Part shown: positions 2,458-41,819 of the stretch, piece by piece
How the letters are laid out: each line of letters begins with the position of its first letter
How positions within the stretch are numbered: position 1 is the first letter of the stretch
Source of the DNA: a virus
Virus record (IMG/VR): IMGVR_UViG_3300045988_101454
Coordinates: 1-64,000 of that record
Length of the DNA stretch: 64,000 nucleotides
Reading direction: 5' to 3' (one strand)
Notes under the pieces: generated by a model
The model's database searches: none
Seen by the model: the letters and a program-made list of their open reading frames with translations, nothing else
Told to the model about the DNA's origin: nothing
Made by a program: the position numbers and the translations under genes

Positions 2458-3246
2458 TTAATAACCCTTCCAGAAGTAGGAGTGATGGCTATACTGGCTT
2501 AACGCCTTCTTTTTGGCAAACTCACGGATAGTGTAGTCGTAACCTTCCATCTTTTTCATGATAGCCTCCGCTTTTCGTGCCAGTCGCAGATAGGCTGCAT
2601 AACTCTTCTTGGTAGCCTTGAGATTTTCAATAGCCGCCAAACGGTCGTTTTTGTAAAACTCTATAACAGCAACCGCTTTTTCGGCTTCCAGGCGCTCGCC
2701 CGTATTCCACTGCCACTGTAAAGCAGGATATGATGTTTTTTTCCCGTGGCTCCAGTCTGCCGAGATCATTACGGATGGTCGATACTCTACATAACAGTTA
2801 CGGCTGTAACTTTCAAGCTCGAAGCTATATTGAGAGAACGAGTTATAGAAGCCTGTCGCCTCCTTCACGGCATCATGGAAGCGTTTATTCAGCACCTTGC
2901 CATCGAATCGTCGGCATACCTGAATAAGTCCGTCCAGGGCCTTGATTTCAAGTTTTCGGCGCTCTATCAATGCGTCCGCGTGCTTGCAATACTCCTTAAC
3001 CTCGTTGGCCTTCTTGTCGGCTTCATGCTTTTTTGCAGCCGCCATAAAGTCCGCCTCCGTACCAATGCTGTAAGCTTTTTCTTCCATACCATGCTCACGG
3101 CTAAACTGGTGAAACAAATCTATATACCTCTGCGCATCCTCCTTTGTGGCGAAGATGTTTACGAACTCTATGTTATCAGAAATCCACAGCCATACGTTGC
3201 CATCGCTGCATACCAATTTTTTTGCTTCTTCAAATATCTGGTTCAT
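2458..3246 (-). CDS. hypothetical protein (intact copy of the duplicated gene)
   Basis: 262-aa ORF. Long identical DNA stretches are shared with 1924..2385, for example around 2070-2135 versus 2940-3000. Confidence 0.7.
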   Translation of the reverse strand: MNQIFEEAKKLVCSDGNVWLWISDNIEFVNIFATKEDAQRYIDLFHQFSREHGMEEKAYSIGTEADFMAAAKKHEADKKANEVKEYCKHADALIERRKLEIKALDGLIQVCRRFDGKVLNKRFHDAVKEATGFYNSFSQYSFELESYSRNCYVEYRPSVMISADWSHGKKTSYPALQWQWNTGERLEAEKAVAVIEFYKNDRLAAIENLKATKKSYAAYLRLARKAEAIMKKMEGYDYTIREFAKKKALSQYSHHSYFWKGY

Positions 3247-3314
3247 GATTCCTCTATTTTTTATGTGTTCTATAATAGGGCTGCCCTGCTGTCAGGTGCA
3301 GCCCCGTGAATGAA
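3247..3314 (-). repeat. intergenic hairpin-plus-leader cassette, copy c
   Basis: Near-identical to copies a and b, with one C-to-T change in the loop. Confidence 0.75.
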
Positions 3315-3316
3315 GA

Positions 3317-9239: not shown

Positions 9240-9911
9240 CTAACTCCTAATAACTATCGCCCCTCGCTCCTCGTCGTAATCCACGCTAATTGCTTCGCAT
9301 CTCTCCGCTGCCTTGTTAGCTCTCTCCGTTGCCGTGTCCGCATCAGCCTTAGCCTTAACAGCGTTATCGGTAGCAGTATTAGCCTTAGCAGCAGCAGCGT
9401 CAGCCTTATCAGCCGAAGCGTTAGCCCTCTCCGTAGCCACATTCGCCTTCTCGATAGCCTCGTTTGCCCCCGTTATCAGGTTGCCAAGTTCTACGGTAGG
9501 AGGCAGCACCACAACAGCCGTGTCCATCTCCACGCTGTCCTCACCTTCTTGCGGTTCGAACACCGTATCACCCTGGGCATTGTTGTCAACAAGCATTATC
9601 TGTTCATACTCATTGCTTCGCCACGAGGAACCGAACAGCTTGCCCTTCACCTCAAGGGCATACGCGCCAAGAGCCATTTCCGAGCTTTGCACCCTCACCT
9701 CAAGCAGCGAGTCATCCTCCACGCCTATCGTATGCGCCATTCTTCTTCGGCGGAACGCATTAACAAGATTTACCTCCACCTCCTCGCAAGCAGGCAATGG
9801 AAACTTCTCCGCCTCTCCGCCCACAATCTTCCTTACCGGCACTCGCAACGTAAAATCGTTACCTCTTACTATCTTCTTCATAAAAGTCTGTTTTTTTAAT
9901 TCAAAACTCAA
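9240..9911 (-). CDS. tail-fibre-associated protein with Ala/Asn-rich coiled-coil segment
   Basis: 223-aa ORF; the start may instead be the ATG at 9881 (MKKIVRG). It has an ANEAIEKANVATERANASADKADAAAAKANTATDNAVKAKADADTATERANKAAE segment like the N-terminus of the DGR target. It ends GAIVIRS with a TAG-TAA tandem stop. Confidence 0.65.
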   Translation of the reverse strand: MSFELKKQTFMKKIVRGNDFTLRVPVRKIVGGEAEKFPLPACEEVEVNLVNAFRRRRMAHTIGVEDDSLLEVRVQSSEMALGAYALEVKGKLFGSSWRSNEYEQIMLVDNNAQGDTVFEPQEGEDSVEMDTAVVVLPPTVELGNLITGANEAIEKANVATERANASADKADAAAAKANTATDNAVKAKADADTATERANKAAERCEAISVDYDEERGAIVIRS

Positions 9912-9970
9912 AATTCAAAAAACTCAAAATTGAATAATTTCTAATCGGCACCGCCGACAATTCCTAATTC

Positions 9971-10246
9971 CTAACTCCTAATTACTATTGCTCCTTTCTC
10001 CTCGTCAAACCCAATGTCAACCATACTCACCTTCTGTATCTGTGCCACCCACTCGTCACGAGTACCCGTATATCCACCAGCCTTCGCCACGTCATACGCG
10101 TCCTCGCCACGGAAGTCAGCACCCTCAACACGATAGCACTCCTGCGAGCCATCCTCCTTCGGACGGATAAGCAGCAGCGTGTCACCCGTCAGCACCTTGT
10201 CAGCCTTCGGCAGACTCAGCACATCAATAGTCTCAATACTTGCCAT
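9971..10246 (-). CDS. hypothetical protein sharing a C-terminal motif with 9240..9911
   Basis: 91-aa ORF ending DEEKGAIVIRS-TAG, compared with DEERGAIVIRS-TAG in the neighbouring gene. Confidence 0.55.
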   Translation of the reverse strand: MASIETIDVLSLPKADKVLTGDTLLLIRPKEDGSQECYRVEGADFRGEDAYDVAKAGGYTGTRDEWVAQIQKVSMVDIGFDEEKGAIVIRS

Positions 10247-33454: not shown

Positions 33455-34630
33455 TTACTTAGCCTTAAAATTATATATCGGCTTGATGCGCTTCACGATG
33501 TTCACAGTGTCGCCTATCAGTTCTTCAATCTCCTCTGCCGACTTGTACGCCATTGGTGCTTCGTCGATGGTGGACTCGCATACCGATGTGGAGTAGATGT
33601 CGTGCATCTGTTGGCGGTATTCTTCCATGCTGAGCTGCTTCTTTGCTGCCGAGCGCGACATCAGTCTGCCTGCACCGTGCGGAGCCGACTGAAGCCAGTC
33701 GTCGTTGCCCTTGCCAGTACACAGCAGCGAACCGTCGCGCATGTTCAGAGGGATAATCAGAGGCTCGCCCTTCTTTGCGCTCACAGCTCCCTTGCGGATA
33801 ATGCCGAAGGTGTCGATGTAGTTGTGCATGGTGGTGAACACACGACCTGTAGACTTTAGTTCAAGACCTTTGATTATGGTTTGCGCCATAAGAAAACGGT
33901 TCAAGTCGGCATAATGCTGACACAAGCGCATGGCATCATAGTAATCGCCAAGCGTGGGACCGCTAATGTAGGCCATGTCTTTAGAAACGGGTTTCAACCG
34001 GCGCAGCGCATCGTTTATCTCGCTCTGTCTGCCCTGAGCTTTCAGTTCGGAAATGATACGTCCACGTTCCTCACTGTTGTTGCATTGTCTTGATGCCAAC
34101 TGCTGAAAATGTCGGCATATCTTTACGCCTAAATTGCGGCTACCCGAATGTACTACAAGATACTTGCGTCCTTCGTCGTCCACGTCCACCTCAATAAAGT
34201 GGTTGCCACCGCCAAGGGTGCCGAGCGAACGCAGTACATAGTCGAGGTCAAAATATTGCTTCCACGGAGGCAAAAAACACCATATTTCATTGTGCATAAG
34301 GGAAACCATCTCTGACGACAAACGCTTCTCATGCACATTGAATCCGCTTGGAATGTTGTCGTTGATGATACGGTCGAGAATCTCCATATCAATGTTGGCA
34401 AAGCCTAAATCCCACACGAGCATACCACAGCCGATGTCTACGCCCATGGTGTTGGGCACCACTTTGCCGCGGGTCTCAATCACGGTGCCTACGGTGCATC
34501 CCTTTCCGGCATGGCAATCGGGCATAATGCGAATCTTACAGTTGCGGTAAGCCTCGCTCTCTGCCATCTGCCTTACTTGCTCCTGGGCTTCAGGTTCAAT
34601 GGTCTTTGCAAAAATCTTTAAGTCACTCAT
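33455..34630 (-). CDS. rtcB: RtcB-family RNA 3'-phosphate ligase
   Basis: Characteristic RtcB metal and GTP ligand motifs are present: MPDCHAGKGCTVG, GVDIGCGM, GGGNHFIEV, VHSGSRNLG and APHGAGR. Confidence 0.9.
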   Translation of the reverse strand: MSDLKIFAKTIEPEAQEQVRQMAESEAYRNCKIRIMPDCHAGKGCTVGTVIETRGKVVPNTMGVDIGCGMLVWDLGFANIDMEILDRIINDNIPSGFNVHEKRLSSEMVSLMHNEIWCFLPPWKQYFDLDYVLRSLGTLGGGNHFIEVDVDDEGRKYLVVHSGSRNLGVKICRHFQQLASRQCNNSEERGRIISELKAQGRQSEINDALRRLKPVSKDMAYISGPTLGDYYDAMRLCQHYADLNRFLMAQTIIKGLELKSTGRVFTTMHNYIDTFGIIRKGAVSAKKGEPLIIPLNMRDGSLLCTGKGNDDWLQSAPHGAGRLMSRSAAKKQLSMEEYRQQMHDIYSTSVCESTIDEAPMAYKSAEEIEELIGDTVNIVKRIKPIYNFKAK

Positions 34631-35630: not shown

Positions 35631-35800
35631 TTATAGTTCTACTAATACTTTTATCTCTGTATGCCCCCCTCCTGCGTATGCAGCGTGGGCGATATTCCTT
35701 TAGCGGAATACACGCGGCGGTTCTGCTCAAATATACGGTCGTAGGGTGGTGTCTGCATCATGCCGACTACGAGGGTGTGTGCGGTGTCAGTCATCGACAT
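35631..35800 (-). CDS. C5-methyltransferase TRD-like mini-ORF (dispersed copy J), -1 shift at G6
   Basis: MSMTDTAHTLVVGMMQTPPYDRIFEQNRRVYSAKGISPTLHTQEGG is followed by a G6 tract (plus-strand C6 at 35664-35669). The family-typical tail HTEIKVLVEL* is in the -1 frame. The frame as sequenced stops at 35651. The ATG overlaps the end of the upstream ORF. Confidence 0.45.
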
Positions 35801-37267: not shown

Positions 37268-37447
37268 TTATTCAAATTTATATACTATATGCGGTGTGGT
37301 GTTGCCCAGTCCGTCGCGAGGGTCGGCAAAGCAGCCAGGCGGTGAGGTTGTCACGGCATTGGCTATCTGCTTGCGCGGTCGGCTCTTTACGAGGCCCTTA
37401 CCGTCCTTGCCGCTGCGTACCCATCCGATGTAATACTTATCAGTCAT
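37268..37447 (-). CDS. C5-methyltransferase TRD-like mini-ORF (dispersed copy K)
   Basis: Hand-translated as MTDKYYIGWVRSGKDGKGLVKSRPRKQIANAVTTSPPGCFADPRDGLGNTTPHIVYKFE*. It has an ATGA overlap with the stop of 37444..38250. Confidence 0.45.
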   Translation of the reverse strand: MTDKYYIGWVRSGKDGKGLVKSRPRKQIANAVTTSPPGCFADPRDGLGNTTPHIVYKFE

Positions 37448-38250
37448 CGGTCTGCGTTTTGCCCTGTCCCCAATCGTTCAATAGACTGGCATAATATCCC
37501 TTGTATTCTACCTGCCTCTTGCTCTGCCCTCTTTAGAGCTTCGTCACGCTCATGCTCCAGCTTTATGCAATATTCAGTCAAGCGATTGTATTCTTTCTGC
37601 AAGGCATTGAAATCCTCGCGCAGCTGCTCCAAATTGGGGTTTTCAGAATCCAATAACACAAGACGTTGCTTTTCCTTGTCCCATCTTTTCCCGATTTTCT
37701 CCACGGAATTGTTGAGAAGTTTTTCTTCCGTAGGCGTAGCGTATCTCAGTTCGATGCTTTTTTCTTCTTCGCGTGTACCGCGAAGGTCAAGCTGAGCGTT
37801 AAAAGTAAGCACGTCGCTGTTTTTGCATAAGCAGGCGTATGTCCTTATCTTGGGATAATCAGTAGATTCCACTCCGCTGAAAATCACAATGTAGGTCAGA
37901 ATGTTGCCATCTTCATACTTAATATCCATTGCCACGATGTCACCCGGCTGGAATTTGAGCACATTCCAACTTCGGTAAAGATGCGAGAGAAACAGCATAC
38001 ACTCTCCTTTGTCAAAACGCGCTATACGCCCGTTGTAAAGAAAAAAATGGTCGTATGCTTCATTCTCGTCAGGATGATGGAGGCCCAGCACAACACCCGA
38101 GGCGTTGAAATTATGCACCTCCATATAACCTAACAGAGGCGAATAAAGCATAGCGTCTACAGGCAAACTGTGGAGAAAAGCTGATAGTTTCTCATTCTCG
38201 AAAGTTTTTGCTCCCGTTTTAGGGATGCTTCTTGTTTCTTTTTGACTCAT
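37444..38250 (-). CDS. hypothetical protein
   Basis: 268-aa ORF. Confidence 0.6.
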   Translation of the reverse strand: MSQKETRSIPKTGAKTFENEKLSAFLHSLPVDAMLYSPLLGYMEVHNFNASGVVLGLHHPDENEAYDHFFLYNGRIARFDKGECMLFLSHLYRSWNVLKFQPGDIVAMDIKYEDGNILTYIVIFSGVESTDYPKIRTYACLCKNSDVLTFNAQLDLRGTREEEKSIELRYATPTEEKLLNNSVEKIGKRWDKEKQRLVLLDSENPNLEQLREDFNALQKEYNRLTEYCIKLEHERDEALKRAEQEAGRIQGILCQSIERLGTGQNADR

Positions 38251-38270
38251 AATGTCTCTATTTTAAATTG

Positions 38271-38422
38271 TTATTCATATTCTATCAATACAATGGTGTG
38301 CTGTCCGTGTTCATCGTAGAGCCCTGCCCATCCGTCGTAGCGGGCGGACAATGCCGTGGAATACCCCCCCGACGTGGGCAGAGCTGGGATGTGCGTTGTA
38401 CGAAAGGGATTTGTTTAATCAT
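38271..38422 (-). CDS. TRD-like mini-ORF I, -1 shift at G7
   Basis: MIKQIPFVQRTSQLCPRRGG is followed by a G7 tract (C7 at 38364-38370). The conserved tail YSTALSARYDGWAGLYDEHGQHTIVLIEYE* is in the -1 frame. The frame as sequenced stops at 38285. Confidence 0.45.
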
Positions 38423-38590
38423 ACGTTATCAATACCATATTGTCTTTGCCTACTGATGTGAGGGTGTTGGTTGTCCCCCCCCCCCGTTTATCTCCATTCG
38501 CTGAAAGAAGCGTCCGTTGGAGGGATGCTTGCGGTTGGACGGATTATCGGGGGCACGGCCTCGGAAGGCTGCTATGCGAAAGTCAATCAT
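38415..38590 (-). CDS. TRD-like mini-ORF H, -1 shift at G11
   Basis: MIDFRIAAFRGRAPDNPSNRKHPSNGRFFQRMEINGGGG is followed by a G11 tract (C11 at 38475-38485). The -1 frame continues TTNTLTSVGKDNMVLITYD*. The frame as sequenced stops at 38450. Confidence 0.5.
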
Positions 38591-38876
38591 CCCCATTCCA
38601 TTTTTCATCATCCACAGTTCGTGCTATGAATATGCGATATGGGTTCTTCTTGTCTGTACTGGTTAGCTCTATTGCTTTTTCGATACTCTCCCTCGATACA
38701 AAGTCGCGTATCATCAACACTGCAAGGGCATCGAACTCGTCGTCCGACAAACAAACAGTATCTTCTCCTCGGCGGATAGTAACAAAGTCGCAAATAGTGT
38801 TGTGCCCGAAAGCCACATCAACATCTTCATTACGTTCGAGGTCTCTGACTATTATTTTTTCTGCGTAAAGACTCAT
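38583..38876 (-). CDS. hypothetical protein embedded in the mini-ORF array
   Basis: 97-aa tracked ORF with no obvious TRD-like motif. Its stop overlaps the start of the next module (ATGATTGA). Confidence 0.55.
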   Translation of the reverse strand: MSLYAEKIIVRDLERNEDVDVAFGHNTICDFVTIRRGEDTVCLSDDEFDALAVLMIRDFVSRESIEKAIELTSTDKKNPYRIFIARTVDDEKWNGDD

Positions 38877-38903
38877 ATTTCTTTTTGTTTATTATTTGTA
38901 CTA

Positions 38904-39080
38904 TTAATCGTAACATATTGCAATCAGATTGTCAGTGGTGAGGGAAGTACCTATACATTGCATCCAACATCCTTGTCGCAGATGCCATTCCTTATCACGG
39001 AAGTCGTTAGTGCCGATTAAGCGACGCACGGCTTTCGCGTGTTCGGTTCTGGCTTCGTGTATCAGATGAATGTTAAGCAT
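38904..39080 (-). CDS. TRD-like mini-ORF G
   Basis: MLNIHLIHEARTEHAKAVRRLIGTNDFRDKEWHLRQGCWMQCIGTSLTTDNLIAICYD*. This uses an internal ATG of the tracked ORF 38904..39128. Confidence 0.45.
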   Translation of the reverse strand: MLNIHLIHEARTEHAKAVRRLIGTNDFRDKEWHLRQGCWMQCIGTSLTTDNLIAICYD

Positions 39081-39244
39081 AATAGGTTGTCTTTTGTTAC
39101 AGTTGTTATCGAATTGCTCCACGGCCACGGACTGGGGCGGTGATACTTTTCGCCGTATTTACACCCTCCGCGGTCGCCATGCTCACGACGGAAGGCTTTG
39201 GCTTCCTCGGTGCGGTAGTGGACGAGGACGGAACGGTCAATCAT
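39062..39244 (-). CDS. TRD-like mini-ORF F
   Basis: Tracked 60-aa ORF MIDRSVLVHYRTEEAKAFRREHGDRGGCKYGEKYHRPSPWPWSNSITTVTKDNLLCLTFI*. Confidence 0.5.
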   Translation of the reverse strand: MIDRSVLVHYRTEEAKAFRREHGDRGGCKYGEKYHRPSPWPWSNSITTVTKDNLLCLTFI

Positions 39245-39386
39245 ACTCTATCAATATTTTCGGTTTATCCACGTCGTGACCCTTACCTCCCCCGGCTATG
39301 CACAAGGCTATGCCGTGTGGTGACACGATGATGCCGTTCTGCGAGGGGCTGTAGGAGCCAAGGATGATGGGGCGAGGGTTGTTCAT
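39237..39386 (-). CDS. TRD-like mini-ORF E (intact)
   Basis: MNNPRPIILGSYSPSQNGIIVSPHGIALCIAGGGKGHDVDKPKILIEYD*. It has ATGA and ATGATTGA overlaps at its two ends. Confidence 0.5.
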   Translation of the reverse strand: MNNPRPIILGSYSPSQNGIIVSPHGIALCIAGGGKGHDVDKPKILIEYD

Positions 39387-39550
39387 AATTCTACTGCTAC
39401 ATAATAGTGGTTACGACTGCTCACTCCAGCTTGAATGGTGTAGATGATACCCCTCCCGAATTGCTTGTTCTAGGTGTCTATCCATACGGCATGAGAGGGG
39501 CGGAAACCACGTTTGTACATTATTTCTAAGCGAGCGTTCTTGTTAAGCAT
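39383..39550 (-). CDS. TRD-like mini-ORF D with an in-frame TAG
   Basis: MLNKNARLEIMYKRGFRPSHAVWIDT, then TAG (39470-39472), then NKQFGRGIIYTIQAGVSSRNHYYVAVEL*. Confidence 0.35.
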
Positions 39551-39679
39551 ATTCAATCAGTACCCCTCCAGTTTTGTTGACAAGGTTAGGGTGGGGTATA
39601 TTCCTTTAGTACCGCAGATGTTGCCATCAAAACCGGACTTCCACTTGTCGTAATAAATGTTGCCAATCTTTTCAATCAT
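39543..39679 (-). CDS. TRD-like mini-ORF C, -1 shift at G4
   Basis: MIEKIGNIYYDKWKSGFDGNICGTKGIYPTLTLSTKLEG is followed by a G4 tract (39563-39566), with VLIEYA* in the -1 frame. The frame as sequenced stops at 39557. Confidence 0.4.
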
Positions 39680-39827
39680 ATTCTACTATTACTGCCGTTG
39701 CTGCCCTGCCTCCCGTTGGCTTAATGAAATTCACCAAAGAATTGCGTTGGTACTGCGACTTAACGCATCGACATAACGCGGGAGAGGTAGAGACACTATC
39801 AGGGTTTAATGCTTTTATAAAAACCAT
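39672..39827 (-). CDS. TRD-like mini-ORF B
   Basis: MVFIKALNPDSVSTSPALCRCVKSQYQRNSLVNFIKPTGGRAATAVIVEYD*. Its start overlaps the previous stop (TAATG). Confidence 0.45.
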   Translation of the reverse strand: MVFIKALNPDSVSTSPALCRCVKSQYQRNSLVNFIKPTGGRAATAVIVEYD

Positions 39828-40453
39828 TATTCAAACTCATACAATACTACTGCCATTGGGTAATGGGCGAGCGTGAGGATGTTGGTAGGTCCGATAGCCT
39901 CGTAGCGTGTGGTTATGGTTGCCGCACAACATCCGTCAGTAACATTCACCATCAGTCCGCTACCCCATTCAGACGGAATGGAGGTGCGACGTGGGTCAGC
40001 TTACACTCCATCCTTCTTCCTCTCCATATTTTCTTTGAACAATTCCTCAAATCCCTCGAATGGGAACGTGTGGTAATTGCAGAACGATTTCCAATAGCTA
40101 TCAAACACGAGTCGCATACCCTCTATACTATCCGCCAATTCGTCAAGCTCCATATCCCATCCGTTGATGGTGTTTATGAGGTTTTGTAGCCACGTCTTGA
40201 GGAACATTGCCGCCTCGTGTGTCGGTGGCAGGTCGAACTGAAGGAATAGGGCGTTGTCAGAGTCGTTGGTCGTGAGGAACTTGCTCACGGCATCGTCCTT
40301 GAGGAAATAGCGGCCGGACACTTCCTCTTCGAGCACGTCTTCCAGTCGGGTAAGTAGCTCGAAGGGTTCGGGAAACTGGTAGTCGAAGGCCACGTCACGG
40401 CGCATGGAGAGGCAGAACACCCTGTCGCGGTTTTGTGGCACGCCGTAGTTCTA
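39827..40453 (-). pseudogene. 5'-truncated C5-cytosine DNA methyltransferase remnant (motif VIII onward)
   Basis: ...THYND-TAG(40451-40453)-NYGVPQNRDRVFCLSMRRDVAFDYQFPEPFELLTRLEDVLEEEV matches the C5 methyltransferase motif VIII (QxRxR) and the following segment. Motifs I-VI are absent because ORF 40514..41149 abuts it. There is an in-frame TAA at 40001-40003, followed by ...GCCAATITTRYEAIGPTNILTLAHYPMAVVLYEFE*. Confidence 0.6.
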
Positions 40454-40513
40454 GTCGTTGTAGTGGGTTTGTGGGGAGTCTTGGTTTTGTTAAAGTTCAT
40501 GGGGGTTGGTGTT

Positions 40514-41149
40514 TTATCGTCTTACTTCCAGCCATGTGTTACAGCGACCGATCCCAAACTTTGCAGCCACCGCACAAAAACTCTTGTCGTGATGACCAGA
40601 CCGACAAGTCCCTAAGTCAGCACAGGTATCACAGCCGAAATCCATATAATCTGGATGATACCATACCTTGTCGCCAATCTCACGGATATAGCCTCTCTTT
40701 GTATCTACCACCAAGGTTCTTCCGACGGAATTTCTTTTGGGTTTATTCACAACAACCTTATACCGATTGTTTTTCTTCCTTACGACATGACATTCATTAC
40801 GCATCGACCATCTCGGGTCAAAAACACGGAAGTCAATGCGCCACTTTTTGGGAAAATGGAACTTCTTCGGGTCGCAATAGTTGGAAAGTACTTTGCGGTC
40901 AGTAGAAACAATCTCTTCCCAGTTGTCACAACAACGAAGTACGTCAACCCTCCATCCTATGCGACGCTGTACTATATCTAACAGCGATGGATAATTACGC
41001 GGCTTCTCCCAGATTCCTCTAAAGTAAAGATTGTATCTGTCAAGCAGCACCTTGTTTCTTGCTTTCATAGTCTTTATAAATTCTTTTATATTGTTAATGT
41101 TTTCGCATTGAGCTGAAATCTTTGTTTCACCAATATGCTCTTTGAGCAA
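40514..41149 (-). CDS. hypothetical protein with Cys/His-rich C-terminus
   Basis: 211-aa ORF ending CDTCADLGTCRSGHHDKSFCAVAAKFGIGRCNTW. It occupies the place where the methyltransferase 5' half would be. Confidence 0.6.
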   Translation of the reverse strand: MLKEHIGETKISAQCENINNIKEFIKTMKARNKVLLDRYNLYFRGIWEKPRNYPSLLDIVQRRIGWRVDVLRCCDNWEEIVSTDRKVLSNYCDPKKFHFPKKWRIDFRVFDPRWSMRNECHVVRKKNNRYKVVVNKPKRNSVGRTLVVDTKRGYIREIGDKVWYHPDYMDFGCDTCADLGTCRSGHHDKSFCAVAAKFGIGRCNTWLEVRR

Positions 41150-41210
41150 AATACTCTTTTAAGGATAGATAACTACGCTTGTGAAAACGCATTTTCATCT
41201 GACTGGGATT

Positions 41211-41348
41211 TTAGTGTCTATGCTGACGTTTTCTTGCCAAACGAATACTTGCACCAAAGACACAATATCCTCCATTCACTTTCACTAAATTTTCCGAATC
41301 AAACGAAATTGTGTACTCGTAAGTACGTTCTTTTATATTTGCTGCCAT
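41211..41348 (-). CDS. small hypothetical protein (45 aa)
   Basis: Hand-translated as MAANIKERTYEYTISFDSENLVKVNGGYCVFGASIRLARKRQHRH*. It only fills a gap. Confidence 0.3.
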   Translation of the reverse strand: MAANIKERTYEYTISFDSENLVKVNGGYCVFGASIRLARKRQHRH

Positions 41349-41351
41349 ACG

Positions 41352-41819
41352 CTATTCATCTTTGAGGTTCAACTTCTCTTGCCATTCTGGGTCGTGTATA
41401 TCACCGACAATCTCAAAGTCCTCAAGTTTCTGTTGCGTGATTCCGTCAGAGATGCCATCAGAGATGCCACGCACAGCGGATTTCGGGTTTTTGACACAGG
41501 TGAGAAAAAACATCGCCTCTTCATCACTCCACCCTATAATGCCAAAGTAATTGTCACGCGCACCATCCTCCATGCGACTGAATGGGTATTCGTCCGAGCG
41601 AAGAAGATCGCCCTCATAAATCTCCTTACCGTTCTTGTCGAGGTAGCCGGTGAACTGGCAGACGGTGCGAGGGTCAACCTTGTAGGGGATGTTTCTATTC
41701 AACATACTTTCCTTTTGCCTATCCTCGATAATGTATGTGTTATCATTCTCCTCGTAGAAGTAACCACAAGTCCATTCTTTATTATCAAGGCGTTTAGCCT
41801 TAAACTTGATTGTTCTCAT
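41352..41819 (-). CDS. YopX family phage protein
   Basis: IKFKAKRLDNKEW...VDPRTVCQFTGYLDKNGKEIYEGDLL is the typical YopX N-terminal pattern. Confidence 0.8.
   Translation of the reverse strand: MRTIKFKAKRLDNKEWTCGYFYEENDNTYIIEDRQKESMLNRNIPYKVDPRTVCQFTGYLDKNGKEIYEGDLLRSDEYPFSRMEDGARDNYFGIIGWSDEEAMFFLTCVKNPKSAVRGISDGISDGITQQKLEDFEIVGDIHDPEWQEKLNLKDE

Follow-up and report, generated by a model that had tools for sequence, protein, structure and literature searches.

A putative split C5-cytosine methyltransferase of uncultured gut phages: a permuted core and an array of small genes homologous to target-recognition domains

To our knowledge, the C5-cytosine DNA methyltransferases described so far have their recognition domain built into the enzyme or, at most, split over two fixed subunits. 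In this study, we examine a phage locus in which recognition domains appear to be encoded by separate small genes. The locus lies in a 64,000-nt stretch of DNA (IMG/VR record IMGVR_UViG_3300045988_101454, positions 1-64,000), called the window throughout; coordinates are window positions unless a relative is named. It consists of the remnant of a C5-methyltransferase and, behind it on the minus strand, a chain of short open reading frames (ORFs) that resemble target-recognition domains (TRDs) and are referred to below as modules.

Several described systems share single traits with this locus. The Bacillus-phage multispecific C5-methyltransferases M.SPRI, M.Phi3TI, M.Rho11sI, M.H2I and M.phiBssHII carry tandem TRDs in one chain (Trautner and colleagues, cited in PMC8936443 and PMC12707154). 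They resemble the present system in that a phage core would be served by several interchangeable TRDs of ~40-50 aa, and protection against many restriction systems is the likely role of both. The Bacillus-phage enzymes differ in holding all TRDs in one polypeptide between motifs VIII and IX, whereas here up to ~17 TRDs form separate ORFs that accompany a TRD-less core and may lie kilobases away. TRD types found here (U3, H, F/G and HhaI-like) also stand in tandem in the canonical proteins P0003 and P0151. In the natural circular permutants M.BssHII, M.Alw26I, M2.Eco31I, M.Esp3I and M2.BsaI the break falls in the variable region, and most known permutants are of "type H", which have kept an N-terminal TRD (PMC5944983). 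The core described here likewise places motifs IX-X ahead of I-VIII with a break in the variable region, but unlike type H permutants it starts ~15 residues ahead of motif IX and has no TRD; the rare fused protein P0001 has a C-terminal one. M.AquI and M.EcoHK31I are two-subunit C5-methyltransferases, split in or near the variable region, with conserved motifs on both subunits (PMC3404938). An enzyme made of separately translated polypeptides is suggested here as well; in those two enzymes, however, there is one fixed partner, whereas the small partners here carry a TRD only and there are many alternatives. Two proteins, P0002 and P0149, look like M.AquI-beta-type subunits (TRDs followed by motifs IX-X). 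Finally, in bacterial phasevarions repeats switch Type I and Type III enzymes (PMC7383803; bioRxiv 10.1101/2020.06.18.137471). The likeness to Type I HsdS and to phasevarions would be one of working and not of homology, specificity coming from a separate subunit and in-gene simple-sequence repeats serving as switches; HsdM/HsdS are bacterial and of the N6-adenine class, whereas the present system is phage-borne and has many coexisting subunits, each with its own homopolymer run. The combination of a TRD-less core with many stand-alone TRD genes occurs in none of these known systems, and a literature search lying mostly outside subscription journals found no description of stand-alone TRD genes or of phase-variable phage C5 enzymes.

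We propose that the locus derives from a split multispecific methyltransferase, in which one catalytic core would be complemented in trans by TRD mini-proteins, and we assign this reading a probability of about 0.6. In ~40 related phage loci an intact, circularly permuted core of 432-446 aa has no TRD of its own and is accompanied by 8-17 tightly packed TRD mini-ORFs of 40-108 aa, situated upstream, downstream or up to ~3 kb off the core. The TRD-less core, the co-occurrence of the modules with it and the selection acting on them all suggest that separately translated subunits need to associate. In the window itself the array is orphaned within the 64 kb, because a deletion took away the catalytic motifs of the core, and it is partly decayed.

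The module array in the window

The minus strand was read from 38100 to 41300. A chain of ORFs of 40-60 aa, described earlier from the letters alone and without database searches (the sequence-only reading), was present on translation at 38271-40453. The ORFs end in a hydrophobic stretch followed by E-Y/L/F-D/E-stop, and the following ATG lies inside or close to the stop. The conserved stop/start junction reported in the same reading was recovered as a 24-nt repeat family of five copies (38268-38291, 38412-38435, 39234-39257, 39540-39563 and 39669-39692); the pattern TTGATAGARTATGA had 5 matches against 0.77 expected. The extent and makeup of the array needed correction, as an unrelated 97-aa ORF lies inside it and it reaches past 38271 to modules J (37268-37447) and L (35631-35800). 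Modules A-I form a real chain, but not all of them are open: there are frameshifts in A (in its long form), H and I, one nucleotide is missing from C, and D contains an in-frame TAG. Six of the 11 modules in the window are disrupted, and B, E, F, G and J are intact. The only G:C homopolymers of at least 7 in the window are those in modules H and I, the two longest in the 64 kb; a third G run, of length 6, sits in module L.

Ahead of the modules stands the beheaded methyltransferase that had been recognized by its motif VIII. The product of the remnant ORF at 40001-40441 (minus strand) includes the stretch NYGVPQNRDRVF, and its PF00145 match is confined to profile positions 146-217 (E 2.8e-6). 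A regular-expression search in six frames found motifs I-VI, IX and X nowhere in the 64 kb, and no further methyltransferase parts emerged there when three full enzymes (one permuted core, one canonical and one beta-type) served as tblastn queries. The window copy is a remnant that does not hold all ten C5-methyltransferase motifs (among them PCQ of motif IV, ENV of motif VI and the S-adenosylmethionine motif I). The gene at 40514-41149 abuts it, as had been stated, and methyltransferase homology starts at ~40460. The features of the locus, all on the minus strand, are as follows.

40001..40477, minus strand: remnant of a permuted C5-methyltransferase core, corresponding to core residues 288-446 (about the last 150 codons), with stop TAA at 40001-40003; contains motif VIII (QNRDR), the post-VIII segment and the C-terminal helical domain; 65% identity over 159 aa to the core of locus L021 (tblastn)
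40461..40513, minus strand: deletion junction; short spacer after the 211-aa gene, fused to core codon ~285
39827..40011, minus strand: module A (AATITTRYEA type); long form frameshifted at a short G run, ATG at 40011 overlapping the core stop; a 41-aa ORF (39827-39952) is still open; one continuous ORF in L004 and L020; 95% identity (tblastn)
39672..39827, minus strand: module B; intact, 51 aa, ending AVIVEYD-stop; 88-100% identical in L004, L020 and L021
39543..39679, minus strand: module C (GIYPTLTLST); the tail, GVLIEYA, has lost its frame through a 1-nt deletion; the counterpart is an intact ORF of 44-45 aa in L016, L021 and L026
39383..39550, minus strand: module D; in-frame TAG at codon 27; tail YYVAVEL-stop, the stop overlapping the ATG of module E (ATGA); a homologue of the N-terminal TRD of P0002 (44% over 52 aa)
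39237..39386, minus strand: module E; intact TRD mini-ORF of 49 aa, the most conserved module (ratio of nonsynonymous to synonymous substitution, dN/dS, 0.09); 86% identical to residues 439-482 of P0001, in which this module is joined in frame to the end of a core
39062..39244, minus strand: module F (RTEEAK...NSITTVTKDNLL type); intact, dN/dS 0.16; its match in P0003 is residues 388-437, which fall after motif VIII and before motif IX
38904..39080, minus strand: module G (RTEHAK...TSLTTDNLI type); intact, 58 aa; 43% identity to P0003 residues 388-441
38415..38590, minus strand: module H (IAAFRGR...TNTLTSVGKDNMV type); reading frame broken at a G11 run (38475-38485); aligns to P0003 residues 354-395 and P0002 residues 201-225
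38271..38422, minus strand: module I (STALSARYDG); reading frame broken at a G7 run (38364-38370); relatives have in-frame G5 or G8 and out-of-frame G6/G7
37268..37447, minus strand: module J; intact, 59 aa, past the 268-aa gene; 90% over 59 aa (tblastn), dN/dS 0.17
35631..35800, minus strand: module L, a TRD resembling that of M.HhaI (RRVYSAKGISPTLHTQ.GG...EIKVLVEL); reading frame broken at a G6 run (35664-35669)
38583..38876, minus strand: 97-aa ORF splitting modules G and H; unrelated, not part of the methyltransferase system
40514..41149, minus strand: 211-aa gene abutting the core remnant; conserved, with a Cys/His-rich C-terminus (CDTCADLGTCRSGHHDKSFC) and no family match

The permuted core and the neighbouring TRD homologues

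Twenty-nine IMG/VR loci were retrieved via two flanking genes, and modules were then placed in them by tblastn. The array in these loci shows 85-100% amino acid identity to that of the window; its order is constant, and the subset of modules differs per phage. A full-length core was found as a single-segment match in ~19 of the 29 loci, whereas the window keeps residues 288-446 only. In L021 the window fragment at 40001-40441 corresponds to the C-terminus of a 446-aa ORF with motifs in the order IX (RKLTPKEC), X (GNSIVV), I (FSGYDS), IV (SPCQDIS), VI (ENV) and VIII (QNRDR), followed by the helical domain; ~6 mini-ORFs lie upstream and ~11 downstream of this core. The relatives' cores contain all of the C5-methyltransferase motifs, with PF00145 matching in two stretches (E 2e-52) and motif I in the variant form FSGYDS. 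Motifs IX-X precede I-VIII in these cores, the part that is deleted in the window, and after motif VIII the 432-446-aa polypeptide holds the helical domain alone, no TRD being kept except in P0001. An AlphaFold2 model of the core (P0001) matched M.MpeI, M.HhaI and M.HaeIII in Foldseek at probability 1.0. The supposed descent from a canonical I-X methyltransferase must therefore be replaced by descent from a permuted TRD-less core, from which the window copy has lost IX-X and I-VI in one deletion. It is true, as had been observed, that no motif IX or X follows the modules; this is the normal state, since the parent core is TRD-less and carries IX-X at its N-terminus.

Nucleotide homology of the window to the 29 relatives begins at ~40460 (blastn), and ~2.4 kb that they possess is missing, which in them holds the TRD modules ahead of the core as well as its motifs IX, X and I-VI. 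The core of the relatives begins 1.0-2.8 kb downstream of the 211-aa gene. By a single deletion in the window, this gene was brought next to core codon ~285, and the catalytic motifs were lost together with the upstream modules; an exact search of IMG/VR with the window junction gave no match. In L023 a second, independent deletion has left 82 aa of the core (motifs IX-X, at 9906-10154 of that locus), and its upstream modules U1-U3 are all out of frame. The intact modules B, E, F, G and J of the window may be without function or may serve a core outside the 64 kb.

The core has 7961 homologous proteins at E<=1e-10. Among the best 120, all but five are unfused cores of 431-445 aa, many on ~100-kb contigs; P0001, with its fused module E, is a singleton. 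Sources of the homologues include "Caudoviricetes sp." and Prevotella metagenome-assembled genomes, and the samples include Hadza gut metagenomes; the labels of the metagenome-assembled genomes are mutually inconsistent, so the host is uncertain. Loci of this type are characteristic of uncultured gut phages that form a large group and measure ~90-105 kb. Among GenBank phages, blastn of the array region found no relative, and tblastn of the core found no full-length permuted core, only tandem canonical genes in Bacillus Herelleviridae. Bacillus phage Deep Blue (NC_031056.1, 74203-76485; L083) and similar Herelleviridae have 2-3 canonical C5-methyltransferase genes in tandem, in which IX-X of one gene directly adjoin I-VIII of the following gene and the frame continues past the stop. 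A fusion of this tandem type is a plausible origin of the permuted core.

The sequence-only reading had likened the modules to TRDs, and the likeness was borne out by homology to variable regions, both in three PF00145 proteins and in additional canonical enzymes. A query of concatenated window modules matched three proteins (P0001-P0003), all belonging to PF00145. P0003 has the canonical order, its motifs I-VIII aligning to M.HhaI residues 18-208 and IX-X to 266-318, and its 220-aa variable region between VIII and IX contains U3-, H- and F/G-type segments in tandem. P0002 has D-, F-, U3- and P-type segments followed by motifs IX-X only, and P0001 is the permuted core with module E at its C-terminus, ending ILLEYE. 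Seven module types (D, E, F, G, H, P and U3) map into the variable regions of these proteins by pairwise BLASTP. An exhaustive library search with module G found 10 stand-alone homologues of 43-113 aa as well as canonical and beta-type enzymes with a G-type TRD (P0149, P0151 and P0153). The module tail aligns to the strand at M.HhaI 262-269, immediately ahead of motif IX. By these comparisons, the mini-ORFs are homologues of the tandem TRDs found within canonical multispecific enzymes. One core is thus accompanied by several TRDs homologous to those of other enzymes, but they occupy separate ORFs beside a permuted core and not one canonical-order polypeptide between VIII and IX.

Several lines of evidence indicate that the mini-ORFs are genes. 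Over 18 module families, pooled dN/dS was 0.15 in the ORF frame versus 1.57 and 1.67 in the other two frames (Nei-Gojobori), which, on sequence grounds, marks the modules as translated and under purifying selection. Stop and start overlap at 107 of 119 distinct module-module junctions (~90%), most often by 8 nt (ATGAnTrA, n=78), otherwise by 19 (n=13), 4 (n=10) or 1 nt (n=2); gaps of <=40 nt also occur. Every module has its own ATG coupled to the stop before it, and TAA, TGA and TAG are each used. This pattern appears to fit termination-reinitiation coupling, rather than a single recoding event or stop-codon reassignment. The latter was rejected because modules end in all three stops alike, and a uniform programmed frameshift was likewise rejected, neither the overlap geometry nor the order of frames being constant. 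The mini-ORF organisation is kept in L030, L032 and L050, whose module proteins are just ~60-70% identical. The comparison with relatives for which the sequence-only reading had called found module boundaries and overlapping junctions conserved.

The arrangement of the modules is also consistent with action in trans, as is the strong conservation of a core that lacks a TRD. The modules occur on both sides of the core, and a given module type can stand ahead of it in one phage but behind it in a different one. In L038 a single module is found ahead of the core, and 3.2 kb away, past YopX and five other genes, there is a second array. Of the 15 modules in the two core-less genomes (the window and L023), 9 were disrupted, versus 26 of 173 where the core is intact (Fisher p = 2e-4). 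When only lesions outside poly-G runs are counted, the figures were 3/15 and 8/173 (p = 0.046). In the split enzyme that we envisage, each mini-protein would dock on the core in trans via its terminal strand or strands beside motif IX and supply one specificity. In this way the phage would produce methyltransferases of mixed specificity, which could shield its DNA against many restriction systems, and recombination at the junction repeats might let modules come and go.

Poly-G runs and possible switching

Nearly all frameshifts in the relatives' modules fall in runs of G5-G11, a feature that the sequence-only reading did not mention. The runs sit at Gly-Gly codons, and which modules are in frame varies between genomes. 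Across 70 loci, the density of sense-strand runs of at least six G was 1.65/kb for modules, 0.44/kb for the core and 0.04/kb for the remaining phage DNA, a 45-fold, strand-specific enrichment in modules; C runs were not enriched. Indels were compared within five groups of independent Illumina assemblies having an identical core protein in each group (33 loci; SPAdes, MEGAHIT and Logan). Seven of the 10 indel events were changes in G/C-run length, with lengths of 7-12 (for example 12/8/7/7, 9/8/9/11/9/9/8 and 8/10/9/9/9), and none of the nine A/T runs of at least 6 in the same groups changed length. One group had zero substitutions in 3.7 kb, yet two run changes.

In one lineage (L031-L036, L041-L049, L050-L066 and L075-L082) the core itself has a G7 run just ahead of motif IV, at nt 588. 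With G7 the core is in frame; G8, present on 24 contigs from many samples, splits the gene into 269 + 172 aa, and the run could be a master on/off switch. A distant C5-methyltransferase of canonical order on a rabbit-gut phage-like contig (L074:5043-6181) is split at a G7 run in its variable region, so poly-G in TRDs may be more widespread.

In-gene repeats whose length differences change the frame between near-identical genomes, as in phase-variable genes, are present in these loci, and, judged from the DNA, the poly-G pattern is that expected of contingency loci. By slippage, single specificities, and the enzyme as a whole, could probably be turned on and off. Such switching would be a reason for keeping TRDs as separate genes: slippage would silence one specificity while the enzyme survived, which might be useful against methylation-dependent nucleases. 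Our confidence in genuine phase variation is somewhat lower than in the trans mechanism. Combinatorial phase-variable methylation, with a core programmed in trans by up to ~17 TRD mini-proteins and a poly-G switch on each mini-gene and on the core, is put forward tentatively, at a little less than an even chance.

Alternative explanations, neighbouring genes and implications

Pseudogene debris, in which the mini-ORFs are functionless fragments of a once-continuous multispecific methyltransferase, is a fair description of the window copy alone. Its core is deleted, 6 of 11 modules have lesions, and canonical enzymes such as P0003 and P0151 hold the same TRD types in one polypeptide. Decay, one of the three possibilities raised by the sequence-only reading, does apply in this genome, since there is no partner within the 64 kb and lesions are in excess. 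As an account of the family it is distinctly improbable: dN/dS is ~1.6 outside the ORF frame against 0.15 within it, the stops and overlapping ATGs have been kept across the divergent lineages named above, the core is intact in most of the best 120 listed homologues, and lesions are significantly rarer where it is intact. The conserved junction had rightly been taken to speak against simple decay. Another of the three possibilities, a silent cassette reservoir whose unexpressed donors are recombined at the junction into a core-fused expression site and so alter specificity, is quite unlikely. Junctions of ~20 nt are conserved, relatives hold differing module subsets in unchanged order, and the variant P0001 has module E fused to the core, all as a reservoir would lead one to expect. 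Nevertheless, because all but five of the best 120 core homologues (431-445 aa) are without a fused TRD, the supposed expression site is normally empty; each module starts at its own ATG, coupled to the preceding stop; and the on/off states of the poly-G runs are sensible only for expressed genes. The repeats are all direct, and no recombinase was noticed beside the arrays, no systematic search having been made. A single expressed copy with promoter-less or start-less silent donors was not what we found. The remaining possibility, stand-alone TRD peptides acting as specificity subunits, is the one of the three that the comparative data favour.

The sequence-only reading had also raised a role as competitors, and such peptides might work independently of a core, as DNA-site decoys or as inhibitors of host restriction-modification or of methylation-dependent defence. 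The window array, which persists without a core and with five modules intact, is in keeping with this, but we consider it unlikely: the modules co-occur with a TRD-less core in ~40 loci, lesions are enriched upon core loss, the conserved tail is the strand that adjoins motif IX in whole enzymes, and a lone 45-aa TRD would be unlikely to bind DNA specifically. Joining of modules and core into one long protein by frameshifting, hopping or stop-codon reassignment is very improbable. Stop-codon reassignment is known in some gut phages, and the junction sequence is conserved; its geometry, however, varies (small gaps, or overlaps of 19, 14, 8, 4 or 1 nt), successive modules are not related by a constant shift in frame, TAA, TGA and TAG all terminate modules, and arrays stand up to 3 kb from the core with unrelated genes between. 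An assembly or sequencing artefact, by which homopolymer errors would have broken a normal long gene, is scarcely credible. Several lesions are located in G runs and most of the closest relatives come from one metagenome of unstated sequencing technology, but identical ORF boundaries are seen in >60 loci, which represent many samples and were assembled variously with SPAdes, MEGAHIT and Logan, most junction stops lie outside homopolymers, and the long genes of the window are uninterrupted.

Other observations weigh against the split, switchable enzyme that we prefer. In the profile comparison proposed with the sequence-only reading, searching each module against Pfam at E<=10 gave no PF00145 match apart from the core remnant, because TRDs are too variable for a profile; their homology to variable regions emerged by pairwise BLASTP. 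A phmmer search of PDB sequences with the single L-type (HhaI-like) module found no methyltransferase match. The AlphaFold2 model of P0001, built on a 22-row alignment, had a mean predicted local distance difference test score of 62, and the TRD scored ~25. Motif I of the core is FSGYDS and not the usual FxGxG, and activity of the core is assumed. The core-less sample consists of two genomes, and related genomes are not independent samples. A second core outside the 64 kb may exist, in which case the window array would not be orphaned. The poly-G length differences could be partly assembly or sequencing error, and the G8 cores could be one inherited clade rather than the product of repeated switching.

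Among the neighbouring genes, the 97-aa gene (38583-38876) and a 268-aa gene (37444-38250, minus strand) both lie within the module array and have no Pfam or PHROG match; homologues of the former occupy differing positions inside the relatives' arrays. A weak paralogue of the 211-aa protein is found near the locus in L011 and L027. Genes of the YopX family (window 41352-41819) occur as 1-3 diverged copies beside the methyltransferase locus in most relatives. Elsewhere in the window, 33455-34630 (minus strand) encodes an RtcB-type tRNA/RNA-splicing ligase (PHROG 1075, E 1.5e-128); the 64 kb yielded no tRNA genes. A 300-nt segment is common to two neighbouring minus-strand genes (1950-2249 and 2811-3110, 86% identity), a tandem duplication that also repeats a 65-nt upstream element (2392-2456 and 3252-3316, 94% identity).

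For the window, an otherwise puzzling "gene-less" stretch of 2-5 kb is explained as the orphaned rest of a split-methyltransferase locus. If the core does accept many recognition peptides of 45-60 aa, the view of specificity in C5-methyltransferases would change: this would be the first such enzyme with detachable specificity subunits, a phage counterpart of the bacterial phasevarion and a naturally occurring set of tools for programming cytosine methylation. The ability of very abundant gut phages to withstand diverse restriction systems would also be accounted for. Through the poly-G runs, the restriction-modification arms race would gain a form of bet-hedging on the phage side, with a phage population that keeps sampling methylation patterns and so evades both methylation-blocked and methylation-dependent restriction.

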